Below, piece by piece: positions 151 to 27,178 of a DNA stretch of 31,187 nucleotides (its first letter is position 1; the number at the start of each line of letters is the position of its first letter). This DNA is from Promethearchaeota archaeon (GTDB taxonomy: Archaea; Asgardarchaeota; Lokiarchaeia; Sigyniarchaeales; SOKP01). The stretch spans positions 20,950-52,136 of the forward strand of contig JBHLMQ010000017.1 in NCBI GenBank assembly GCA_048938005.1, in the 5' to 3' direction. The notes below the pieces were generated by a model. It ran no database searches and had not been told where the DNA came from. It saw only the letters and a program-made list of their open reading frames with translations. The translations under genes were made by a program, and so were the position numbers.

Positions 151-648
151 ATGAGTTCTTTATCTGCTGTTCGGCCTAAAAATTTCCGCGAAAAGGTGTT
201 TTTTCGTAAACTCCGATCACAAGTGGATGGAAATGCAAAAGGTGAACATGCTTTAACACAAATTAGAGGTATTGGCAGAAGATTCGCTCAAGCTATCATT
301 AGAGTAGCTAAAGTCGACCCAAATATTAGAATAGGAGCACTTCCTGAAAAAGATTTGAATAGAATCGAAGAAATAATCATTAATCCGATCGAAAATGGTC
401 TTCCTAATTGGATGGTGAACCGACCAAAAGATTTGCGTACTGGTGAGGATCTTCATGTAATAGGAAATATATTGGAAATAACAATCAAAAGAGACATAGA
501 TAGAATGAAAAAAATTAAAAGTTATAAGGGTGTTCGCCATCATTTAAAATTAAAAGTACGTGGTCAACGAACAAAAAGTACTGGTCGTCATGGATTAGTT
601 GTTGGTGTTATGAGAAGGAAAAAAGGACAACAATTAAAATCTAAATAG
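151..648 (+). CDS. rps13: 30S ribosomal protein uS13 (archaeal S13)
   Basis: [13 protein letters not shown] helix-turn-helix; archaeal/eukaryal P-x-W-x-x-N-R-x-K-D segment; SYKGVRH and [11 protein letters not shown] signatures. Confidence 0.98.
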
Positions 649-16126: not shown

Positions 16127-16606
16127 TTAACTCTCGCTTATATCTATTTTTTTGGCTGGCTTTTTACCAAATGTCACCTTTAGGAGCCCGTTAGCCATTT
16201 TTGAAACTAATGTATCTGTATCCGCATCAACTGGTAAAGGAATATCCATGTTTACATCAATAAAAGTAAAACCTTTCCAGAAAGGCGGAAAACCAAATCC
16301 ATGAGGTGCTTTTTCTTCATCTGGTTTTTCCTTTACAGTTTCCATTTCAGGAATCTTCGGTTTCTCTGCTTTAATGTTAAGGTGTTTATTAATTAAAGAA
16401 ACTTTAACTTCTTCTTTAGTACGACCAGCTAACGGTACAGTAATCAAATAACTATCTCCAAGGTCTTCGACATTATAAGGTATATGACTCCCCATAAAAC
16501 CCCTCATAAAATGGTGAGCCATTTGTTTCATTTTTGCTACATCGCGAGGTCCGAATTGGAAACATCCAGCAAATCCTTTAGCTCCATGATGTCTTTCATC
16601 ACACAT
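16127..16606 (-). CDS. Small heat-shock protein (Hsp20/alpha-crystallin domain)
   Basis: PYNVEDLGDSYLITVPLAG-x-x-KEEVKV, IPLP, MANGLLKV, C-terminal IDI (IxI) motif; GGAGG SD. Confidence 0.9.
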   Translation of the reverse strand: MCDERHHGAKGFAGCFQFGPRDVAKMKQMAHHFMRGFMGSHIPYNVEDLGDSYLITVPLAGRTKEEVKVSLINKHLNIKAEKPKIPEMETVKEKPDEEKAPHGFGFPPFWKGFTFIDVNMDIPLPVDADTDTLVSKMANGLLKVTFGKKPAKKIDISES

Positions 16607-16654
16607 ACTATTTTACCTCCATATTTTTTTTCTATATATATTTATTGGTAAAAG

Positions 16655-17305
16655 TTAAAAATTTTCATACTCATTATCATCCACAATAGGGATGGTCTTA
16701 GTATTTGTATCTCTTTTCAATTTTAAACTTTTTAGAATTTCCTCATATTTTTCGATTTCTTTGCCAATTTCCTCCAATCTAAGTGAAATCCTCTCTTTAC
16801 TAAATCTTAAATCATTAACAATTCTTTCAACTCTGTTAATATTTGACAAAGAAAAGTCCTCTTGATTGATCTCTCTTTGAGTTGGTGCACAATGAAATGG
16901 AAAACATGACATAACTCCTTGAATTCCCTTTTCATGAGGCAACCAAGCATTTACGACTGTACGAATAAAATCTCCAAGAGTATTCATGCTTGGTTCAAGA
17001 TTGTTTTTTAGAACTTCCTTTAATCTTTCCTCGCCTTGAATTGTGATTCTATAAATCTTTTTTTGGCGATTGTTTTCGTCAATGAATTCTTCTATTTCTA
17101 CAAAACCTTTCTCCTCTAATCTACCTAATAAAGGATATATTGTTCCAGGAGAAGCTCTCCACATAGGTTTAAATTTCCTATTGATTTTTTGAATTATTTC
17201 ATATCCAGAAACCCCTTCTTGATTCCTAATTATAGAAAGTACTAAAATATCTAATCCTGAAAAAGGTCCACCTCGGTAGCCACTAAATCGTTTGCCAAAG
17301 AACAT
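16655..17305 (-). CDS. PadR family transcriptional regulator with C-terminal coiled coil
   Basis: SGYEI, SPGTIYPLL-x-RLEEKG, KKIYRIT-x-x-G. Confidence 0.94.
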   Translation of the reverse strand: MFFGKRFSGYRGGPFSGLDILVLSIIRNQEGVSGYEIIQKINRKFKPMWRASPGTIYPLLGRLEEKGFVEIEEFIDENNRQKKIYRITIQGEERLKEVLKNNLEPSMNTLGDFIRTVVNAWLPHEKGIQGVMSCFPFHCAPTQREINQEDFSLSNINRVERIVNDLRFSKERISLRLEEIGKEIEKYEEILKSLKLKRDTNTKTIPIVDDNEYENF

Positions 17306-19342: not shown

Positions 19343-19548
19343 TGAGAATTTTTAAGAAATTTAATACTTACAAAAAATGGTGGATAAAGTTAATAACCTA
19401 TAAATTAAACCTTTTAAAACATTAAGAGACCAATTTTTGTTATTCTCTTTTAATAATAGAGTAATCTATTTTAACAAAAAGATTTATATATTCTATTTGG
19501 CGTATTTTTCATAAAAATTAATCTAAAAATAAATGGGATGTTTAATCC

Positions 19549-20553
19549 ATGGCTTTAAAAGAATATTTTGTTCGAGATCTAGTGATTGATGATGAATACG
19601 GGATAATAGACTCAAAAGCTACAATTCAAGATGCTGCGAAAAAGATGAAAGAATTAGGAGTCCCAGACTTAGTAGTAGTTGAAGGTGAGGAACAGAACGT
19701 TCTAGGAGTTATTGCTGATTTTGATATTGTACAAAATGTTGTAGCAGAAGGGAAAGACGTTAAATCTGAGAAGGTAATTTCTACAATGTATAAAATTACT
19801 CCTGTAACGTTAGATACTCCCGTCACTGATGCTTTTACAAGAATGCGTGATTTAAATGTTAATGTTGTACCTGTAATCGAAAATAAAAAACTTATAGGAG
19901 TATGTTCTATTCATGACTGTTGGAGCTTCATTCCTGATCAAAATGTAGATGAAATTGGCCTTATTCCAGTGAGAAATACAAAAGTCGTAGAATTCTGGTT
20001 TGCCAGTGTTTGTGCAATTTTAGGATTTACTTTAGGTATAATTCTACCTCTTGCGGGTATTTTTGGATTTTTTACAGGGAATCAAATAGATCTGCAAGCT
20101 TTGCTTTGGCAAGGACCTATCGGAGGAAATGTAACGTTCACTTTATTCGAGGCAAGGGGAGCAACGTTTATAGTGTCTTTCCTTGATTTGTACACTAAAA
20201 ATGGACCTATATGGCTAGTGATTGATATTTTTAGTATTTTATTGTTGATATCTGGGATTATATCGTTGTTTTCGATAATTTATACTAGTTTTTCTGATAC
20301 ACGAAATTTACAAACAGGTTGGATTATAAAAACTATAATACCTGGATTAGTTGTTTTCTTTATGGTTTTTGAGTGGATCTTATTCGGTATAGCATTTAAT
20401 ATTGCGACTCCACCACCTATTATTGCTATTGATGCAATAGGATTAACAATGTCAATTATTTCAATGATATTATTTTTATTAGCTATCAATCGAGACTATA
20501 TTTTCCGTGGAAAAGAGGAACCAGAAGCTAAAACAAGTGGGGTGTCAGGATAA
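19549..20553 (+). CDS. CBS-pair domain fused to a four-TM membrane domain
   Basis: Two CBS motifs (aa ~10-130: ATIQDAAKKM..LGVIADFDI; TPVTDAFTRM..VPVIE..LIGV), then 4 hydrophobic helices. Confidence 0.88.
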   Translation: MALKEYFVRDLVIDDEYGIIDSKATIQDAAKKMKELGVPDLVVVEGEEQNVLGVIADFDIVQNVVAEGKDVKSEKVISTMYKITPVTLDTPVTDAFTRMRDLNVNVVPVIENKKLIGVCSIHDCWSFIPDQNVDEIGLIPVRNTKVVEFWFASVCAILGFTLGIILPLAGIFGFFTGNQIDLQALLWQGPIGGNVTFTLFEARGATFIVSFLDLYTKNGPIWLVIDIFSILLLISGIISLFSIIYTSFSDTRNLQTGWIIKTIIPGLVVFFMVFEWILFGIAFNIATPPPIIAIDAIGLTMSIISMILFLLAINRDYIFRGKEEPEAKTSGVSG

Positions 20554-20556
20554 AGA

Positions 20557-22023
20557 ATGCCTCGTGGTGGTGGCTTTAGAGGTGGCGGTTTTAGAGGTGG
20601 AGGCTTTAGAGGTGGAGGCTTTAGAGGTGGAGGTTTTAGAGGTGGAGGCTTTAGAGGCGGAGGCTTTAGAGGTGGAAGACCTTTTGGAAGAACTGGCGCT
20701 ACACGAATAGTATCAAGATCTCCAAGAGGACCTTATACACATAGATATTACAGCCCTCATCGTAGATTTTATAGACCATATTGGTGGTATCATCGACCTT
20801 GGTATTGGAGATGGTGGTATTCCCCTTGGTGGGCAGGATATTGGTATCGACCTTGGTATTATAGTCCAGTGTATGTTGGTGGGGGGATATTATTCATGAT
20901 TGTCCTTGCTTTGATAATACTCCCTGCTGCTGGTGTAGCATTCTGGTTTCCTTTTAGCAATGCTGATTCAGGCGGCTATGTAAATTACAGTTCTACTGAA
21001 ACTTTATATCCTAATGATCTTTGGTATGAATCTGAGTATATTGAAAATGGAAAAGATATAACATTTTCTGTCACATCTTCATCAAGTGATATGACATTTG
21101 CTATTTGGGATCATTCTTATAACTCCCTTCCAACAACCGAAGAAAATATAGATATTGTATTTTCAACTCCTATCTTAATTAGTGGGCAATATTGGTATGA
21201 ATGGCTATATTTAAAACCAGATTCTTTAATTGAATATGACTTTAATGCTAGCGGTCCAATTGATTTCTTCATTGCTGATGGAAATGAATATGATATTTGG
21301 TATAACTGGGGTCCTGATCCTTCTTTTTATATACAAGATACTGTTCAAAATAATGGTACTTTTGGAATTAGTGCACCAGATATTTATTATGTTGTATGGT
21401 ATAACGATGGGGTATCTCCAGTTGACGTTGATTATACATTAAATTATACTTCAACATATGTAGTAGATTTTAGTGGCACATATGAGACACAAGAAGGTGT
21501 GAATTCGCACTCAGGTACGTTCCAAGTTAATCATTCTGGAACTTGGTATTTTTTTATCTATTTTATCCCTACAAATACAGAATCAGAATCCATGGGAATT
21601 GAATTTGATGTAACATACGATACAGGGGTAACTTATGTGGACAGATGGATTGGTGTTCAGTGGATTTTAATAATTGTTCTTGTAGTTGTTGTTATTATAA
21701 TAATAGCCGCAGTTGTAGCAAGAAGAGGTCAGAAAAAATTAAAACTTAAAGAACCAACAACACCAGCACCAAAAAAACCATCACCCTACAAAATTACTCC
21801 TTCAGAAGTAGAAGAAAAAGTAATCAATTGTACTCGATGCAATGCTTCAATAAAACCAGATGCTAAATTCTGCCCTAATTGTGGAGGAAAAATAGAAGGA
21901 AGACAAGTGGGTGTTCCTTCAATAACAACTCCCGCTACGGCAAAAACTTGTTCTTTGTGCGGAAGTAAACTTACTGGAACAGAAAGTTACTGTAAATGGT
22001 GTGGAACTAAAATAGAAAAATAA
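20557..22023 (+). CDS. Two-TM membrane protein: RGG repeat, W/Y/R/P-rich segment, GOLD-like extracellular beta domains, C-terminal double zinc ribbon
   Basis: (GGGFR)x7; TM at ~20878-20949 and ~21646-21720; beta-rich acidic region with NxS/T sequons; CTRC/CPNC and CSLC/CKWC. Confidence 0.9.
   Translation: MPRGGGFRGGGFRGGGFRGGGFRGGGFRGGGFRGGGFRGGRPFGRTGATRIVSRSPRGPYTHRYYSPHRRFYRPYWWYHRPWYWRWWYSPWWAGYWYRPWYYSPVYVGGGILFMIVLALIILPAAGVAFWFPFSNADSGGYVNYSSTETLYPNDLWYESEYIENGKDITFSVTSSSSDMTFAIWDHSYNSLPTTEENIDIVFSTPILISGQYWYEWLYLKPDSLIEYDFNASGPIDFFIADGNEYDIWYNWGPDPSFYIQDTVQNNGTFGISAPDIYYVVWYNDGVSPVDVDYTLNYTSTYVVDFSGTYETQEGVNSHSGTFQVNHSGTWYFFIYFIPTNTESESMGIEFDVTYDTGVTYVDRWIGVQWILIIVLVVVVIIIIAAVVARRGQKKLKLKEPTTPAPKKPSPYKITPSEVEEKVINCTRCNASIKPDAKFCPNCGGKIEGRQVGVPSITTPATAKTCSLCGSKLTGTESYCKWCGTKIEK
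20563..20676 (+). repeat. Coding 15-bp tandem repeat (GGY GGN GGY TTT AGA)x7 encoding GGGFR
   Basis: Seven units at 20566-20670 differing only at third codon positions. Confidence 0.97.
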
Positions 22024-22043
22024 TGTAATTCAATATTAAAATC

Positions 22044-22061
22044 TTTTTTCTTTTTTTTTTT
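22044..22061 (+). terminator. Oligo-T terminator of the CBS-4TM / RGG operon
   Basis: T6-C-T11 about 20 nt after the stop at 22023. Confidence 0.7.
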
Positions 22062-22086: not shown

Positions 22087-22293
22087 TTATTCTACTTCTT
22101 GAGTAGCGTTTGGAGCTTCATGATTCTTGGAAGAAATATAACTACCCTTTACTTCATTAATATCAACAGTCACTACTGTATGACCTAAATGCTTTTTTTC
22201 AAATTTCTTTATTTCTATTTGGTTAACGGGATTACTTGGATGAATAACGACATATGTTCTGCATTTAATACAGGCACGACATCGAACACTCAT
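22087..22293 (-). CDS. Small putative Zn-binding protein (68 aa)
   Basis: ATG 22293: MSVRCRACIKC...FEKKHLGH (CxxC plus HxxH). Confidence 0.8.
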   Translation of the reverse strand: MSVRCRACIKCRTYVVIHPSNPVNQIEIKKFEKKHLGHTVVTVDINEVKGSYISSKNHEAPNATQEVE

Positions 22294-22492
22294 AATTATA
22301 ATCAATGTTTATTTTTCTACTGTTACATATATGATAATTTATATATACGTAGCTGTCCAATTATTAAAAAAATTATGAAAATATTTCAAATTTTTGGTTT
22401 TAATTTAAAATTGTTGTATAATGATATAAGGAAATTAATACTTAATTCTTGAAAATTTTACAACATATATATTACTTTTTTCTTTAATTAGT

Positions 22493-24739
22493 TTAGATTT
22501 CCATCAAACTTGGAATTGTAGAATCAAATATATCTTTCATCTTTTCAATATTAACTTTAAAACTTTGAGATCTTAATCCTCTAATGCTTATTTCTGAATT
22601 ATTAATTAAAACACCTATTTTATTAATTTCAACGTTAAATTGTTTTGAAATTTCTAAAATAGTATCGTAATCGTTAGGATCTGTTTCTATAATAAATCTC
22701 CCCACTGATTCACTAAATAAAAATTCATCATCCCTTAGGGTTTCGTTATAGCTATGTGAAAAGTCTAAATCTGCCCCTAATTTGTGTTTGAAGCACATTT
22801 CAGCAATTGTAATGATAAGTCCACCCTTATTAACATCATGATTTGCTTTCACAAGATTTCTTTTATATAGCTCAAGAAGGAAATCCCAAGTAGCTTGAAT
22901 TTTTGCCTCATCAACTTTAGGAGGCCTTCCCCCTTCAATATTATAAATAACTGAGTGGTATTCTGACCCTCCTAATTCTGCTTTAGTTTCTCCTATAAGA
23001 AAAACATCATCCCCCACATTCTTAAATGGAAGAGTTATTATATTCTCTTCACCTTGAATAAGTCCTACAATCATTATCATAGGTGTAGCCTTAATTGCTG
23101 TTTTTTTAACTTCATCTTCATTATAGAAAGATACATTTCCACCCACTATCGGAATTCTTAAGGATCTACAAAAATCATTCATACCCTCAATAGCCTTAGA
23201 AAAATACCAAAAAGATTCGGGGATTTCAGGATTTCCAAAGTTACAGCAATTTACCATAGCCATCGGTCTTGCTCCATTTGCTATTAAATTTCCACCAACT
23301 TCAACTAATCCCCCTTTAACCCCTTCGTATGGATCTAAAAAACAGTGTTTTGAATTAATACCAACACTAGCAGCTATAAATTTATCTGTACCAATTATTC
23401 GAAGAACACCTGAATCTCCTTCCCCACATTTTACAACTGATCTAATCCCAACCTCATGGTCATATTGTCGATAAATCCATTCTTTACTACAAATATTTTC
23501 TGATGCTATTAATTTATAAATGATTTCATCTAAACCTAAGGATGGTTCAGGTGTTTCTTGAGATAATAAAGTATCTAAATAATTTGGTCTTTTTGCTTCA
23601 CGATTAAAGGTTGGAGATTCAGAAAGAGCTTTTGAAGGGATACTTACAGCAATATTATCTCCATCAAATACATTAAGAACTTTTGAATCATCAGTTCTTC
23701 CAATTACAGCAAAACTCATCTCATATTTCCTAAATATATTGAGAATGATCTCTAATCCTTCAGGTTTAACAATAAAAGCCATCCGTTCCTGTGATTCTGA
23801 AAGCATAATTTCATAAGAGTTCATTCCAGGTTCTCGTGTAAAAACTTTTCTTAAGTTTATCTTTGCTCCAGTATTTCCATCACCAGTTAATTCACTAGTA
23901 GCACACGTCAATCCACCTCCTCCCAAATCTTTTAAACCTCTTACAAATCCAGTCTTTACAGCTTCTAAAGTAGCTTCAATAATCATTTTTTTAGTAAATG
24001 GGTCGCCAATTTGAACTGCAGGTCTATCAGCTTCAGACATTTCAGTTAAAGTACGTGATGCGAATGTTACTCCATGAATTCCATCCCTACCCGTAGATCC
24101 TCCCATTAGGATTACGTAATCACCAGGATTATAAGCTCTACTAGGGGCGTGCTTGAAGTCTTCTATTGTACCCAATCCTATACAAGCCACATTTACTAGG
24201 CAATTACTTTCAAAACTTTCATCAAATTCAACTTCACCGCCTATCGTGGGGATTCCTGTACAATTACCATAATCTGCAATGCCTTTCACTACGTATTTAA
24301 ATAACCATTGTGAATGTGGATTCCCTTTTAAATGACCAAATCTCAAAGGATCTAGTAATGCAATAGGTCGAACACCCATACATAGAATATCTCTTATTAT
24401 ACCACCGATCCCTGTCGCTGCCCCGTGATAAGGTTCAATCGCAGAAGGATGATTATGAGATTCAATTCGAAATGCTAAGGCATAGCCATCTCCTATATCA
24501 ATAACTCCTGCATCTTGGCCAGGACCAGCTAAAACATAGTTATAATTTTTCTCAGCATCTTCAAATAACCTAAGTTTCGGACGTGATGATTTGTAAGAGC
24601 AGTGTTCGCTCCACATAACGTCAAACATGCCTAATTCAGTAATATTTGGCTCTCTATCTAATAATTGTTTAATTTTTTCAAATTCTTCATTTGTCATTTC
24701 CACATCTGCTTCTTCTCCGTTAACAATTACTTTCGTCAT
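22493..24739 (-). CDS. purL: Phosphoribosylformylglycinamidine synthase subunit PurL
   Basis: MWSEHCSYKSS, ESHNHPSAIEP, DLGGGG, LSESQERM, GGNVSFYNE. Confidence 0.98.
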   Translation of the reverse strand: MTKVIVNGEEADVEMTNEEFEKIKQLLDREPNITELGMFDVMWSEHCSYKSSRPKLRLFEDAEKNYNYVLAGPGQDAGVIDIGDGYALAFRIESHNHPSAIEPYHGAATGIGGIIRDILCMGVRPIALLDPLRFGHLKGNPHSQWLFKYVVKGIADYGNCTGIPTIGGEVEFDESFESNCLVNVACIGLGTIEDFKHAPSRAYNPGDYVILMGGSTGRDGIHGVTFASRTLTEMSEADRPAVQIGDPFTKKMIIEATLEAVKTGFVRGLKDLGGGGLTCATSELTGDGNTGAKINLRKVFTREPGMNSYEIMLSESQERMAFIVKPEGLEIILNIFRKYEMSFAVIGRTDDSKVLNVFDGDNIAVSIPSKALSESPTFNREAKRPNYLDTLLSQETPEPSLGLDEIIYKLIASENICSKEWIYRQYDHEVGIRSVVKCGEGDSGVLRIIGTDKFIAASVGINSKHCFLDPYEGVKGGLVEVGGNLIANGARPMAMVNCCNFGNPEIPESFWYFSKAIEGMNDFCRSLRIPIVGGNVSFYNEDEVKKTAIKATPMIMIVGLIQGEENIITLPFKNVGDDVFLIGETKAELGGSEYHSVIYNIEGGRPPKVDEAKIQATWDFLLELYKRNLVKANHDVNKGGLIITIAEMCFKHKLGADLDFSHSYNETLRDDEFLFSESVGRFIIETDPNDYDTILEISKQFNVEINKIGVLINNSEISIRGLRSQSFKVNIEKMKDIFDSTIPSLMEI

Positions 24740-25449
24740 TAAGAAACCCTCCGCTTAATAAATTCTAACATAGATTCAAAAAACAATTTTCCATGAGTTG
24801 TTCTTTTTGGACTCAAAATTGATTCTGAGGCTCGTTCTGGGTGAGGCATTAATCCAATGCAATTTTGCTCTAAGTTACATATTCCTGCAATATTTTCTAG
24901 TGAACCATTAGGATTTGCATCTTCTGTCAACTCTCCTTTTTCAGTAGAGTATCGAAATACAATCTGGTTGTTCTCTTCTAATTCTTTTAGATTATCAGTA
25001 TAATAACGTCCCTCTCCATGAGCGATAGGAATAGCAAGCACATCACCTAAATTCATTTTATTCGTAAAGGCTGTTTTATTGTTTTCTACTTTAAGATTTA
25101 TCCATTTGCAAACAAATTTGAGTGAATCATTCTGTAGTAATGCTCCTGGAAGGAATTGAGCTTCTGTTAAAACCTGAAAACCATTGCAAATTCCTATAAC
25201 AGGCCTTCCATCCTTTAACATTATTTTTGCTTCATCAATTGCAGGGCTATGAGCAGCAATAATTCCTGCTCTCAAATAATCTCCAAACGCAAATCCTCCC
25301 GGTAATACTACACCATCATAATTTGCTTCTTTAAAATGGTTATGCCATATTAAATCAGCTTTTACATTAATCACATCATTTAAAACGTGTATAGTATCTA
25401 AATCGCAATTAGCACCCGGAAATTGGATTACAGCTATTTTAATATTCAT
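24739..25449 (-). CDS. purQ: FGAM synthase glutaminase subunit PurQ
   Basis: FPGANCD, PGGF-x-x-GDYLR, GICNGFQ, MPHPER. Confidence 0.98.
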   Translation of the reverse strand: MNIKIAVIQFPGANCDLDTIHVLNDVINVKADLIWHNHFKEANYDGVVLPGGFAFGDYLRAGIIAAHSPAIDEAKIMLKDGRPVIGICNGFQVLTEAQFLPGALLQNDSLKFVCKWINLKVENNKTAFTNKMNLGDVLAIPIAHGEGRYYTDNLKELEENNQIVFRYSTEKGELTEDANPNGSLENIAGICNLEQNCIGLMPHPERASESILSPKRTTHGKLFFESMLEFIKRRVS

Positions 25450-25715
25450 GATTTCGATACTTTTAAAATAGTTAGATTTTGAGTCACTGGATTAAAAATT
25501 CTTAAGTCATTACACATTTTTTCTACTATTTCCTTGGCTTCATCTTCATCAGTAGCTTTAAGATTAATTCTTAAAAATTGTCCTGAACGGACATTGAAAA
25601 CCATATCATAACCTTTTTTAGCTAAAAGGTCTTTTTGAATAGTGGTACCAACAGGGTCTTTTGCTGCTGGTTTATTCATCAAAGTTATTTCTACTTCAAA
25701 TTCTTGGGGAGCCAT
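25446..25715 (-). CDS. purS: FGAM synthase subunit PurS
   Basis: KP-x-x-KDPVG, MC-x-x-L...NPV; start reassigned to ATG 25715 (89 aa); ATGA overlap with purQ. Confidence 0.93.
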   Translation of the reverse strand: MAPQEFEVEITLMNKPAAKDPVGTTIQKDLLAKKGYDMVFNVRSGQFLRINLKATDEDEAKEIVEKMCNDLRIFNPVTQNLTILKVSKS

Positions 25716-25941
25716 TTGTAAAAAAAAGAAGTTGTATATATTTTTATTAATTCTTATTAACTTAAAAATAATGCTCATCGACAAAAACGACAAGAATTAG
25801 TTTTTCTCGAGTTGGTTTAAGAAATTACATTAATCTAAAACCTAAATTTCTTAGAGAAAAAATTTTCGTTGAAATTAAAATTAATATAACAAAAGTTAGC
25901 GCACACCAAGGAGTAGAAGTTCTTTTAGTACGAGAAATAAA

Positions 25942-26145
25942 TTATATATACCCTATGCTTATAATTATTGCGAGTAGTAGAGCTAGCAGACCGAATAATA
26001 AAGCAAATTTGCTTCTCTTGGGTAGAACAGTTGCTTTGAAATCCTCATTTTTTTCATGTTTATAGCTTTTAATATCAAGTATAAGATAAACAAAACTAAG
26101 CACAAATAATGTAAAATTAATGAATAAAAGAATTAAGTAAAACAT
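25942..26145 (-). CDS. Small two-TM membrane protein
   Basis: Two hydrophobic helices around a charged loop; same strand as the flanking pur genes. Confidence 0.65.
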   Translation of the reverse strand: MFYLILLFINFTLFVLSFVYLILDIKSYKHEKNEDFKATVLPKRSKFALLFGLLALLLAIIISIGYI

Positions 26146-26191
26146 AATACAATAAATTACTCCGAATTATTATTTAAACTTTTCTTAAATG

Positions 26192-27178
26192 CTATAAATA
26201 ATTGGCTTCCTTTAAACTTTCATAAATCCTTTTTTTAACATCCGCGACTTCTGCTTTAAATTCTAATCCAGTAATTTTCTTATAACTTCTCATATACCTT
26301 TTTGCTAATTCTATTTTGATATCTTCGGAAATTGGAGGAATTTCTTCATCTTGTTTAATATCGGGAAAAATAGTGGGGTAAGTTTCCATAAGCCACCCTC
26401 TAAAAATTTCCTTATCTAAAATTTCTGGGGAGTCTCCTTTTTCAAATTTTTCATCATAAGTATCGAGGATCCAGAATCGAGATGAATCTTGAGTGTGTAT
26501 TTCGTCAATAACCATTAATTCGCCTTCTTTTAATCCAAATTCATATTTTGTGTCTACTAAGATAAGACCATTCTTTTCACAAAATTCTTGTCCAAATTTA
26601 AATAGTTTAAGCGCAGCCTCTTCCATCTCTTCATAAACGTCCTTTTCGACCATTCCTTTTTTTAAGATCTCTTTTTTCGAGAGGTATATATCATGCCCTG
26701 ATTCTGCTTTTGTAGAGGGTGTTATGAGTATCTCATCAAATTTTTGATTTTTTTTCATTCCTTTAGGAGGCATTATACCTGAAGTGGATTTCCCTTTGGT
26801 ATAATCACGCCACATACTTCCAGTTAGGTATCCTCTTGTAACCATTTCAACTGGAACTGTCTTACATTGATGAACGACAGCTACATTTGGATCCGGAGTA
26901 TCAATAACGTGATTTTTAACAATTTCTTTAGTTTTTTCAAACCAGAAGGATGAAACCTGATTTAACATTTGTCCTTTAAATGGAATTGTAGTTATTACTC
27001 TATCAAAAGCGCTCAGACGATCTGTTGCGATAATTATTCTTATATCTTTTTTTATATAATTATCTCTAACTTTCCCGCGATATAATTCCCCTAACTTAAA
27101 GAAATCTGTTTCTTTTAAGGTATAGTTTAATTGCTCCTTAATTATATTATCAATATTCTTAGCAACCATGGTAATCAT
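26192..27178 (-). CDS. purC: SAICAR synthetase (long form)
   Basis: GKVRDNY, TDRLSAFD, TPSTKA, LVDTKYEFG, DEIHTQDSSRFW. Confidence 0.97.
   Translation of the reverse strand: MITMVAKNIDNIIKEQLNYTLKETDFFKLGELYRGKVRDNYIKKDIRIIIATDRLSAFDRVITTIPFKGQMLNQVSSFWFEKTKEIVKNHVIDTPDPNVAVVHQCKTVPVEMVTRGYLTGSMWRDYTKGKSTSGIMPPKGMKKNQKFDEILITPSTKAESGHDIYLSKKEILKKGMVEKDVYEEMEEAALKLFKFGQEFCEKNGLILVDTKYEFGLKEGELMVIDEIHTQDSSRFWILDTYDEKFEKGDSPEILDKEIFRGWLMETYPTIFPDIKQDEEIPPISEDIKIELAKRYMRSYKKITGLEFKAEVADVKKRIYESLKEANYL

Follow-up and report, generated by a model that had tools for sequence, protein, structure and literature searches.

A stretch of 31,187 nucleotides from a Promethearchaeota archaeon (GenBank assembly GCA_048938005.1, 3.7 Mb; contig JBHLMQ010000017.1, positions 20,950 to 52,136 of the forward strand), to which we refer as the window in the following, carries two consecutive genes for membrane proteins, here named gene 1 and gene 2. 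Strong comparative evidence, drawn from genome sequences, indicates that these genes form one conserved, tightly coupled functional unit of Loki-type Asgard archaea, and they are probably co-translated. Gene 1 combines a cytoplasmic CBS pair with a predicted membrane domain of four helices. The product of gene 2 is predicted to cross the membrane twice and is composed of a cationic tail with RGG repeats, an ectodomain that we read as two GOLD-like β sandwiches, one nested in the other, and a double zinc ribbon. As its role, we tentatively favor that of a nucleotide-gated tether or receptor across the membrane, which is a possibility rather than a probability.

The coupling of the two genes is evident from their arrangement. 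Of 41 relatives, all those that carry the two genes on a single contig have them as direct neighbors. For linkage counts, we used a draw of 301 genomes from the phylum, of which 75 contain a strong match to the gene 2 ectodomain, 77 a full-length gene 1 and 74 both. In all 74 two-gene genomes, the genes share a contig and a strand, gene 1 is upstream of gene 2 and abuts it, and the gene 1 match is found 387–555 nt before the start of the ectodomain, a distance that equals the length of the N-terminal part of gene 2. Four genomes have just one of the genes, and in two of these, the match reaches a contig end or lies no more than 270 nt away from it. The loci that we fetched show gaps of 0–3 nt or short overlaps. 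A first-pass annotation of the window, made from its letters alone, had taken the two genes for one unit; orthologs that are rarely adjacent, which would have spoken against this, are clearly not what these counts describe.

The pair is present in the families here labeled f1, f2 and f26, and on one 3.1-kb contig of an f9 genome. In other groups, both genes are absent together (0/4 genomes in the genus g12, 0/5 in the genus g16 and 0/4 in the family f4). The f26 proteins share 39–44% (gene 1) and 38–42% (gene 2) identity with those of the window, and the arrangement is kept in all five cases. By contrast, the flanking genes of the window, for example those for a HAD hydrolase and PurL, are kept within the genus only: they are found in none of the nine fetched loci of other genera, all of which have the pair. 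The f9 contig (L038, G310:C264) belongs to a genome with a contamination of about 8%; its pair is 73% and 65% identical to that of the window and is preceded by a promoter-like box of the type found in the window's genus (see below). This contig was probably mis-binned rather than transferred.

Gene 1 has 494 homologs at E≤0.001, of which the best 120 listed are 73–100% identical, and gene 2 has 292 at the same threshold. Where named, the former are called ‘CBS domain-containing protein’ and the latter mostly ‘zinc ribbon domain-containing protein’; the gene 1 entries come from metagenome-assembled genomes (MAGs) labeled Promethearchaeota or Lokiarchaeota, and the named homologs of both genes taken together from MAGs labeled Promethearchaeota, Lokiarchaeota or Lokiarchaeia, with a few bearing other Asgard labels. 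Full-length gene 2 occurs as a single copy per genome in nearly all cases.

In gene 1, the Pfam family PF00571 matches in two stretches (E 1.1e-11, 45.2 bits against a cut-off of 24), and the whole protein has no other Pfam match at E≤1; an NCBIfam scan returned CBS-bearing families only, all far under their cut-offs. An AlphaFold2 (AF2) model, computed from a 28-row alignment with a mean predicted local distance difference test score (pLDDT) of 79, contains four helices after the CBS pair (residues 144–169, 221–251, 258–285 and 296–313), a 50-residue α/β loop (170–220) between the first two of them and a poorly predicted linker following the CBS pair. The charges of the loops are consistent with an inside-outside-inside-outside-inside path, so that the first-pass description of a CBS pair joined to four transmembrane (TM) helices agrees with both the Pfam match and the model. 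In structure comparisons with VIA, the CBS pair matches 1xkf_A (Z 17.0, root-mean-square deviation (rmsd) 2.3 over 120 aa), the AMP-bound 2rif_A (Z 15.8), the CBS-rubredoxin-like protein TA0289 (2qh1_A, Z 15.4) and the CBS pairs of CNNM (7msu, Z 14.3) and MgtE (2yvx, Z 11.8). At the position of the ribose-phosphate motif for adenosyl ligands, which we take to be G-h-h-S/T-x-x-D/N, the second CBS domain reads GVCSIHD and the first GVIADFD; G53, D57, D59, G117 and D123 are invariant.

By contrast, the four-helix domain of gene 1 could be assigned to no known family. It has no Pfam match beyond noise at E≤10 in three of three diverse orthologs. Searches with gene 1 by Foldseek and by VIA, the latter over 48,161 chains, returned CBS pairs only, but these matches filled the lists, so that the membrane part was barely probed. 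An Atlas feature search with residues 138–334 yielded unnamed clusters only, with values of 0.81–0.83 that are within the chance range. Across 31 orthologs from three families, G163, P167, W222, W276, G298, L299 and A312 are kept in the helices and R315, D316 and F319 in the cytoplasmic C-terminal stretch. The intramembrane position 275, beside the invariant W276, is always polar (E in 23, Q in seven and D in one of the 31). In one genome of the window's genus (L023:3117-4301, + strand), gene 1 encodes 394 aa, and BLAST matches its last ~37 residues twice, with window residues 297–333 aligning to 298–322 and 357–393; this suggests an internal duplication or insertion near the fourth TM helix.

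The protein encoded by gene 2 begins with an unusual tail. Its first 40 residues contain eight RGG repeats and consist of 58% G, 20% R and 18% F (pLDDT 33–38); the number of repeats is not fixed and ranges from one to eight among 21 orthologs. The following residues 41–107 are rich in Y (19%), R (18%), W (15%) and P (13%) and have no acidic residue. They open with the motif RPFGRTGAxR, a candidate docking motif, and contain further positions that are invariant in 31 of 31 orthologs (P81, W82, R98, W100, P104 and Y106). Altogether, residues 1–107 carry 20 K+R and no D or E, i.e. a net charge of +20, and are modeled as disordered (pLDDT 33–50). In their Phe-spaced RGG repeats, they resemble the GAR domains of fibrillarin, nucleolin and FUS-type proteins; for fibrillarin, this spacing has been reported (PMC9957100). 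Unlike in these GAR proteins, the repeats reside on an archaeal membrane protein and vary in number, and RNA binding is putative.

At the other end of the protein, the double zinc ribbon (DZR, PF12773) scores 38 bits against a cut-off of 27.3 and is matched in all 34 aligned members, and its eight cysteines are all invariant in 31 aligned orthologs. Between the TM helices, the ectodomain (residues 134–364) is free of Cys and has 3 K+R against 35 D+E, a net charge of −32 that falls between −22 and −38 in 19 orthologs. Because of this charge pattern and the zinc sites, we place both ends of the protein in the cytoplasm and the β region outside, the topology that the first-pass annotation had given for the RGG repeats, the zinc ribbons and the β region. 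It had further called the β region GOLD-like, which the structure comparisons below support, and sequon-rich. Five sequons are indeed found in the ectodomain of the window's protein, and two more in its cytoplasmic part, but their number in the ectodomain varies from 0 to 5 in 19 orthologs; they are thus not a conserved trait, and we gave them no weight.

The model of the ectodomain is all-β, with a pLDDT of about 90 over residues 141–355, and divides into an outer sandwich, formed by residues ~141–190 and 305–355, and an inner one, formed by ~195–300. Foldseek returned, at full probability, p24β1 (5azw_A, E 1.1e-3, TM-score 0.70 by target), p24γ2, TMED1 and the GOLD domain of SPF; birnavirus capsid rows with poor TM-scores were also returned. 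A VIA alignment run on Foldseek's candidates ranked three p24 subfamilies at the top (5azw_B, Z 12.5, rmsd 2.1, 90/93 aa, model residues 146..355; 5gu5, Z 12.4; 7rrm_A, Z 12.2), with SEC14L/SPF GOLD domains at Z 11.3. These top alignments span model residues 141..355, yet comprise only about 90–100 aligned residues, and a second set of matches is confined to the inner region 200..298 (p24δ1 GOLD, Z 10.0; ACBD3 GOLD, Z 8.7). We read the long-span set and the inner set as one GOLD-like sandwich inserted into another. At the sequence level, this region of the window's protein matches no Pfam family; a distant relative (P0337) reaches PF01105 at E 0.0021, which is under the cut-off, and a profile of the ectodomain found a single chance-level row among the PDB sequences (a kinase, E 0.57). 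In a collection with one genome per species, the ectodomain has 112 relatives, of which the best 80 are all MAG records assigned to Promethearchaeota, Promethearchaeia, other Asgard candidate phyla or ‘uncultured archaeon’.

As in p24/TMED, SEC14L/SPF and ACBD3, a GOLD-type sandwich is thus predicted on the non-cytosolic side of an anchor that is followed by a short basic cytosolic stretch. Gene 2 does not, however, have the p24 layout of signal peptide, coiled coil, one C-terminal TM helix and short sorting tail. Instead of a cleaved signal peptide, it has an N-terminal signal-anchor preceded by a long cytoplasmic tail; it lacks a coiled coil, and it possesses a nested second sandwich, a second TM helix and zinc ribbons.

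Further evidence on the coupling comes from a second group of loci. Among the matches to gene 1 were stand-alone CBS-pair proteins of 135–158 aa whose CBS pair is unusually similar to that of gene 1 (E 1e-21 to 1e-26), and we fetched 13 such loci in addition to L039. In the families f18 and f29, the CBS gene adjoins a gene for a membrane protein with an Arg/Gly/Ser/Tyr-rich N-terminus in all eight assessable loci (L039, L043, L044, L045, L047, L048, L052 and L054; L046 stops at a contig edge), and in six of the eight it lies directly upstream of this tail-bearing protein. The four complete partners (L039, L043, L044 and L047) are 370–390 aa long and consist of a tail, a TM helix, one β domain, a second TM helix and one zinc ribbon, like a smaller version of gene 2; those in L048 and L052 are cut by the contig end. 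L045 has a 164-aa protein with tail, TM helix and zinc ribbon upstream of the CBS gene, and the partner in L054 is a 140-aa, tail-anchored, Arg/Gly/Ser-rich protein. By hhalign, homology to gene 2 extends over the inner sandwich in the case of L047 (window residues 189–296; probability 98.5%, E 2.5e-15). As the CBS proteins of the eight pairs have no TM helix, any contact with the partner must be cytoplasmic, and the part of the partner that is common to all eight is the cationic tail beside a TM helix. The link between the CBS and gene 2-type families is therefore old and probably acts on the cytoplasmic side.

Two relatives from our library illustrate how the gene 2-type cassette varies. In P0242, cytoplasmic TPR repeats replace the cationic tail in front of the TM-ectodomain-TM cassette, and in P0241, an extracellular WD40-type propeller is added to the ectodomain; in this, the cassette resembles an adaptor across the membrane to which various interaction modules are joined. 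In three f18 loci of one genus (L039:1332-1724, −; L047:48-437, −; L052:1480-1890, +), a hydrophobic open reading frame (ORF) of ~130 aa, with two to four helices in a hydropathy scan, is divergent from the CBS gene. We considered it as a split-off membrane domain of gene 1 and discarded the idea at an hhalign probability of 0.2%.

These observations can be accommodated in the following model, which we favor tentatively. The proteins of gene 1 and gene 2 would work together, coupled on the cytoplasmic side, where the CBS pair would act against the cationic tail of gene 2, its zinc ribbon or both. Outside, the GOLD-like ectodomain would hold a ligand or a cell-surface partner; inside, tail and zinc ribbons would keep their partner, a polyanion or a protein, at the membrane, and an adenosyl ligand on the CBS pair would decide on the availability of this cytoplasmic platform. 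A fusion-type hint of a link between CBS pairs and zinc ribbons is given by solved CBS pairs fused to a Zn-ribbon-like domain, namely 3ghd (E 1.5e-4) and the above-mentioned TA0289 (2qh1/1pvm). In these, the CBS pair and a C4 zinc-ribbon-type domain reside in one soluble polypeptide, which has no membrane, GOLD-like or RGG parts, whereas here the two are found in neighboring genes. Complex prediction with full-length gene 1 and residues 39–488 of gene 2, based on row-matched alignments of 31 genomes and run without controls, gave an ipSAE of 0.20 in both runs, relative to a mark of 0.32; we count this neither for nor against binding.

As a first guess at the inside partner, we rank RNA or ribosomes first, a protein, e.g. 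a cytoskeletal one, next and anionic lipid third. RNA and ribosomes lead because of the fibrillarin-like FRGGG repeats, the extreme positive charge and the precedent of archaeal CBS proteins that clamp ribosomes. The archaeal hibernation factors ARC-P/ARC-A, HibA/AHA and the Sri family combine AMP/ATP-sensing CBS modules with basic, rRNA-gripping elements; ARC is a two-protein system, and its two genes co-occur in genomes. A recent report describes archaeal CBS proteins that use basic elements to bind ribosomes and leave them upon ATP binding (10.64898/2026.01.19.700304). Unlike our pair, these hibernation factors are soluble, have four CBS domains or HPF fusions and lack a membrane part, and we found no homology of gene 1 to them beyond the generic CBS fold (E 2e-4 to 1e-6). 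A protein comes next because of the TPR variant and a zinc-ribbon precedent, the haloarchaeal CdpC, whose zinc ribbons are reported to bind FtsZ1, thus anchoring it at the membrane (10.64898/2026.07.16.738847). RNA binding by the gene 2 tail is plausible in that its composition permits it, but a lipid or a protein as partner is just as consistent with the data. The most specific version of the model, in which a GOLD-type surface receptor would hold RNA or ribosomes via the GAR tail and the zinc ribbons, and the CBS sensor would release or engage them according to the AMP/ATP state, is quite improbable as a whole.

Several points weigh against the tether or receptor model. The GOLD-like assignment is based on a predicted model, and the gene 2 protein of the window has no sequence match to PF01105 or APD1-4_N (PF16040) at E≤1. 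Binding modules other than GOLD score nearly as high as the p24 proteins (PliG, Z 11.2; the DeCLIC N-domain, Z 10.5; SIDT1, Z 10.3; with calpain, the range is Z 9–11), and since the GOLD-like fold is common to many unrelated binding modules, it does not name a ligand. The model leaves the membrane domain of gene 1 unexplained, and the polar column 275 hints at a job inside the membrane. Moreover, the TPR repeats of P0242 argue for a protein rather than an RNA partner. Finally, the nearest CBS-only proteins of f20 (three loci), f10 and f7 (one locus each) have other neighbors, so that the CBS link is not universal.

Among the alternatives, a purely structural role fares best, although we consider it rather unlikely. 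Gene 2 may encode a surface or envelope protein, i.e. an adhesin, a surface-lattice anchor or a part of a protrusion, with gene 1 as its assembly or stability partner and no signal passed; the aromatic and Arg-rich juxtamembrane segment and the RGG tail would then grip the inner leaflet. The sequence directly before the first TM helix, rich in Trp, Tyr, Arg and Pro, has a composition that is typical of membrane-interface peptides. The conserved ectodomain, which is large, well folded, very acidic and Cys-free and present in one full-length copy in nearly all genomes, would suit a surface component, as would the extracellular propeller of P0241, and a GAR domain is reported to be modulated by phospholipids (PMC7290794). 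This explanation does not account, however, for a nucleotide-sensor neighbor that is kept in three families plus the two with stand-alone CBS proteins, nor for the invariant cytoplasmic motifs and the zinc ribbons.

Alternatively, gene 1 could encode a CBS-gated channel or transporter, probably a dimer of 4-TM protomers, with gene 2 in an accessory or regulatory role. A cytoplasmic CBS pair that sits on or acts on a membrane unit is familiar from MgtE, CNNM/CorC, CBS-bearing ClC proteins and the OpuA/OpuC ATPases, and in MgtE, CorC and CBS-bearing ClC it is tethered to a membrane domain as in gene 1; PDB titles record adenosyl ligands for many CBS transport proteins. The MgtE and CNNM pairs among the structural matches, the polar intramembrane residue beside W276 and the invariant G and P in the helices fit such a role. 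Yet the membrane part (E≤10, three of three orthologs) and the whole protein (E≤1) have no match to MgtE, DUF21 or ClC, the MgtE rows in Foldseek align the CBS part only (rmsd 23), and each protomer has only four helices. MgtE itself has a five-helix membrane domain after its N-domain and CBS pair, and in CNNM/CorC, DUF21 is N-terminal to the CBS pair, whereas in gene 1 the CBS pair comes first. Gene 1 further differs from the CBS transport proteins in having an obligate partner gene, and the f18/f29 CBS proteins, which have no membrane domain, still adjoin an Arg/Gly-rich membrane protein that is mostly gene 2-like. The channel or transporter explanation is thereby weakened, and we regard it as improbable.

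A very improbable third alternative is that gene 2 encodes a membrane ubiquitin-ligase-like protein, an archaeal relative of the APD-type membrane RING ligases. It shares with plant APD1-4 the order of TM helix, luminal β region, TM helix and C-terminal zinc domain, and an Atlas structure search returned plant APD1-4 RING proteins with TM-scores of 0.47–0.52 over residues 144–364. PF16040 is matched in 13 of 34 aligned gene 2 orthologs at E≤0.1 (best 3.2e-6) and, where present, covers the inner sandwich. Of ten orthologs scanned singly, five of which were picked because such a match was already on record, seven match and three reach the 27-bit cut-off. A six-frame scan of the 301 genomes gave 17 matches at E≤0.001, five of them over the cut-off, against none in 14 control genomes; 13 lie inside gene 2 orthologs and three in further membrane proteins whose N-termini are rich in Gly, Arg and Ser (L039, L040 and L041), while the one in L042 looks like noise, as it falls in a soluble 694-aa protein. 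On the other hand, PF16040 is missing from all 22 genomes of the window's genus, including the window's own, and no Pfam scan, whether of gene 2 or of its relatives, listed PF16041 (APD1-4_M). Rather than the C3HC4 RING of the APD proteins, a cross-braced domain, gene 2 ends in two sequential C4 ribbons, and the description of the APD family includes no RGG tail. RING-type matches are all under their cut-offs (zf-C3HC4_3 in 8 of 34 members, at E 0.0057 or worse), and a regular expression for the C3HC4 RING pattern found none in 149 proteins checked among the best 150 of 167 hits (E≤0.001) of an ectodomain profile against 1.84 billion proteins. Lastly, no gene of the ubiquitin system adjoins the pair.

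The f26 orthologs of gene 2 (L025-L030; 552–577 aa) carry ~60 extra C-terminal residues after the double zinc ribbon; this Cys/His-rich domain has weak, RING-type matches that could be counted for a ligase, again under all cut-offs (zf-RING_4, E 0.0017; zf-UDP, E 0.0035 and 0.0068; Prok-RING_4, E 0.23). L040 (G028:C34, 841-4169) encodes a gene 2-type paralog of 377–413 aa with an Arg/Gly/Ser-rich tail, TM helix, β domain, TM helix and zinc ribbon, which matches APD1-4_N with 25.2 bits and has no CBS gene alongside; by the look of their sequences, its neighbors are an ORF with a P-loop-like motif and a reverse transcriptase-like ORF. The 615-aa protein of L041 (1925-3772, +) has a Gly/Ser/Arg-rich N-terminus, a TM helix, an APD1-4_N-like β domain and a C-terminal multi-helix membrane domain and, going by these predicted parts, is another architecture built on the gene 2-type cassette.

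That the two genes are chance or merely syntenic neighbors with unrelated functions is next to inconceivable, given that they are adjacent in 74/74 genomes, in fixed order, with gaps of 0–3 nt, between families at 38–42% identity and in flanks that are not kept.

The features of the locus are listed in Table 1. The two ORFs had been described as lying 3 nt apart, with a promoter-like sequence ahead of them and a T-tract behind, and each of these elements is where it was said to be. The TAA stop codon of gene 1 (20551-20553) is followed by three bases and the ATG of gene 2 at 20557, so that co-transcription may be inferred. The sequence TTTATATA is a putative archaeal promoter of the pair. A box at −66 to −68 is found in 11 of 30 orthologous upstream regions, i.e. 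in ten of ten loci of the window's genus and in L038, one of the 11 being spelled TTTAAATA; it was not found in the remaining 19 regions scanned, and the f26 loci have a GGAGGT ribosome-binding site in its place. We read the T-rich tract as a candidate terminator because oligo-T terminators are known in archaea. A scan for bacterial-type promoters and terminators, whose models are bacterial while the host is archaeal, found sites no more commonly than in shuffled sequences.

Table 1. Positions of the gene pair, its protein domains and its candidate expression signals, numbered from the first nucleotide of the window.
Feature	Position	Strand	Basis
Candidate promoter, TATA-box-like TTTATATA	19483..19490	+	66 nt 5' of gene 1 ATG; A-rich run like a B recognition element (BRE) before the box
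Gene 1, CBS pair and 4-TM membrane domain, 334 aa	19549..20553	+	ORF list, Pfam, AF2 model
CBS pair (Bateman module), residues 1–125, cytoplasmic	19549..19923	+	Pfam PF00571
Gene 1 membrane domain, residues 144–313, four helices, extracytoplasmic loop 170–220	19978..20487	+	AF2 model
Gene 2, double-pass membrane protein, 488 aa	20557..22023	+	ORF list, Pfam, model, charge pattern
Tandem 15-nt repeat, 7.4 copies, encoding (FRGGG)n, GAR-like tail	20566..20676	+	Tandem Repeats Finder (TRF) score 187, 91% matches
Invariant motif RPFGRTGAxR, residues 41–50, in disordered tail	20677..20706	+	P42, F43, G44, R45, T46, G47 and R50 invariant in 31/31
Arg/Trp/Tyr/Pro-rich juxtamembrane segment, residues 55–107	20719..20877	+	Composition; conserved in orthologs
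TM1, residues 108–133, signal-anchor	20878..20955	+	Model helix 104–130; L119, L122 and P123 invariant
Acidic ectodomain, residues 134–364, read as two nested GOLD-like β sandwiches	20956..21648	+	Predicted model, structure comparison
TM2, residues 365–388, then basic stop-transfer RRGQKKLK	21649..21720	+	Model helix 360–396; R389 and K393 invariant
Double zinc ribbon, residues 425–488, two C4 sites	21829..22020	+	PF12773; G448 and R449 of the linker are invariant
T-rich tract, candidate archaeal terminator	22042..22061	+	19 nt 3' of gene 2 stop; TRF row

Upstream of the pair, the window carries genes for a ferredoxin-nitroreductase and the HAD hydrolase, and downstream, on the opposite strand, a small ORF followed by purL-purQ-purS. 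The latter belong to a purine biosynthesis cluster (22493-27178, −) that consists of purL (AIRS/AIRS_C), purQ (GATase_5), purS and, separated from these by a gap, purC (SAICAR synthetase). The small ORF between gene 2 and purL (22087-22305, −; 72 aa) has a Cys cluster near its N-terminus and no Pfam family at E≤0.001; a similar ORF is found at the matching position in one genome of the same genus (two overlapping fetches, L009 and L024). Further away (16127-17305, −), an Hsp20-family gene lies directly 3' of a gene for a PadR-type regulator, likely as a stress-response pair. The PADLOC defense models gave no family at E≤0.01 for either protein of the pair. The stretch, or a part of it, is contained in 20 DNA runs from seven studies of sediment and mangrove metagenomes, and no RNA run is listed for it.

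The first-pass annotation knew of no described system with this combination of parts, and the literature agrees: in a search that did not extend to supplementary gene tables, we found no description of the pair, of its two families or of an archaeal APD-like protein. The public records name both proteins by generic domains only. GOLD domains as such have been reported in other archaea; in methanogens, they are reported to be fused to adaptin-like regions (PMC10936438). We rate each domain as being of a known kind, and the combination as a variant of CBS-regulated membrane modules and GOLD-domain membrane receptors.

Among the close relatives of eukaryotes, the Loki-type Asgard archaea have been studied best, and conserved genes without an assigned function in these organisms are candidates for traits that preceded eukaryotic cell biology. 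The pair described here joins, in one strictly conserved unit, four modules with strong eukaryotic associations or regulatory meaning, namely a GOLD-like domain, a GAR-like tail, zinc ribbons and a CBS energy sensor. It is also a clean and testable target, given the small size of both proteins and the availability of Loki-type strains in culture. Were the GOLD or APD relation one of true homology, it would add a membrane-receptor family to the links between Asgard archaea and eukaryotes. Should the module be an AMP/ATP-gated platform for RNA or ribosomes, it would correspond, in membrane-bound form, to the soluble CBS-based factors of ribosome hibernation recently found in other archaea; it would then be specific to Asgard archaea, with a receptor that may be a forerunner of the eukaryotic p24- and APD-type GOLD-domain membrane proteins. 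More generally, a role in tethering RNA, ribosomes or cytoskeletal proteins to the membrane under nucleotide control, if borne out, would reveal how an archaeon that lacks internal compartments arranges its cytoplasm at the membrane.

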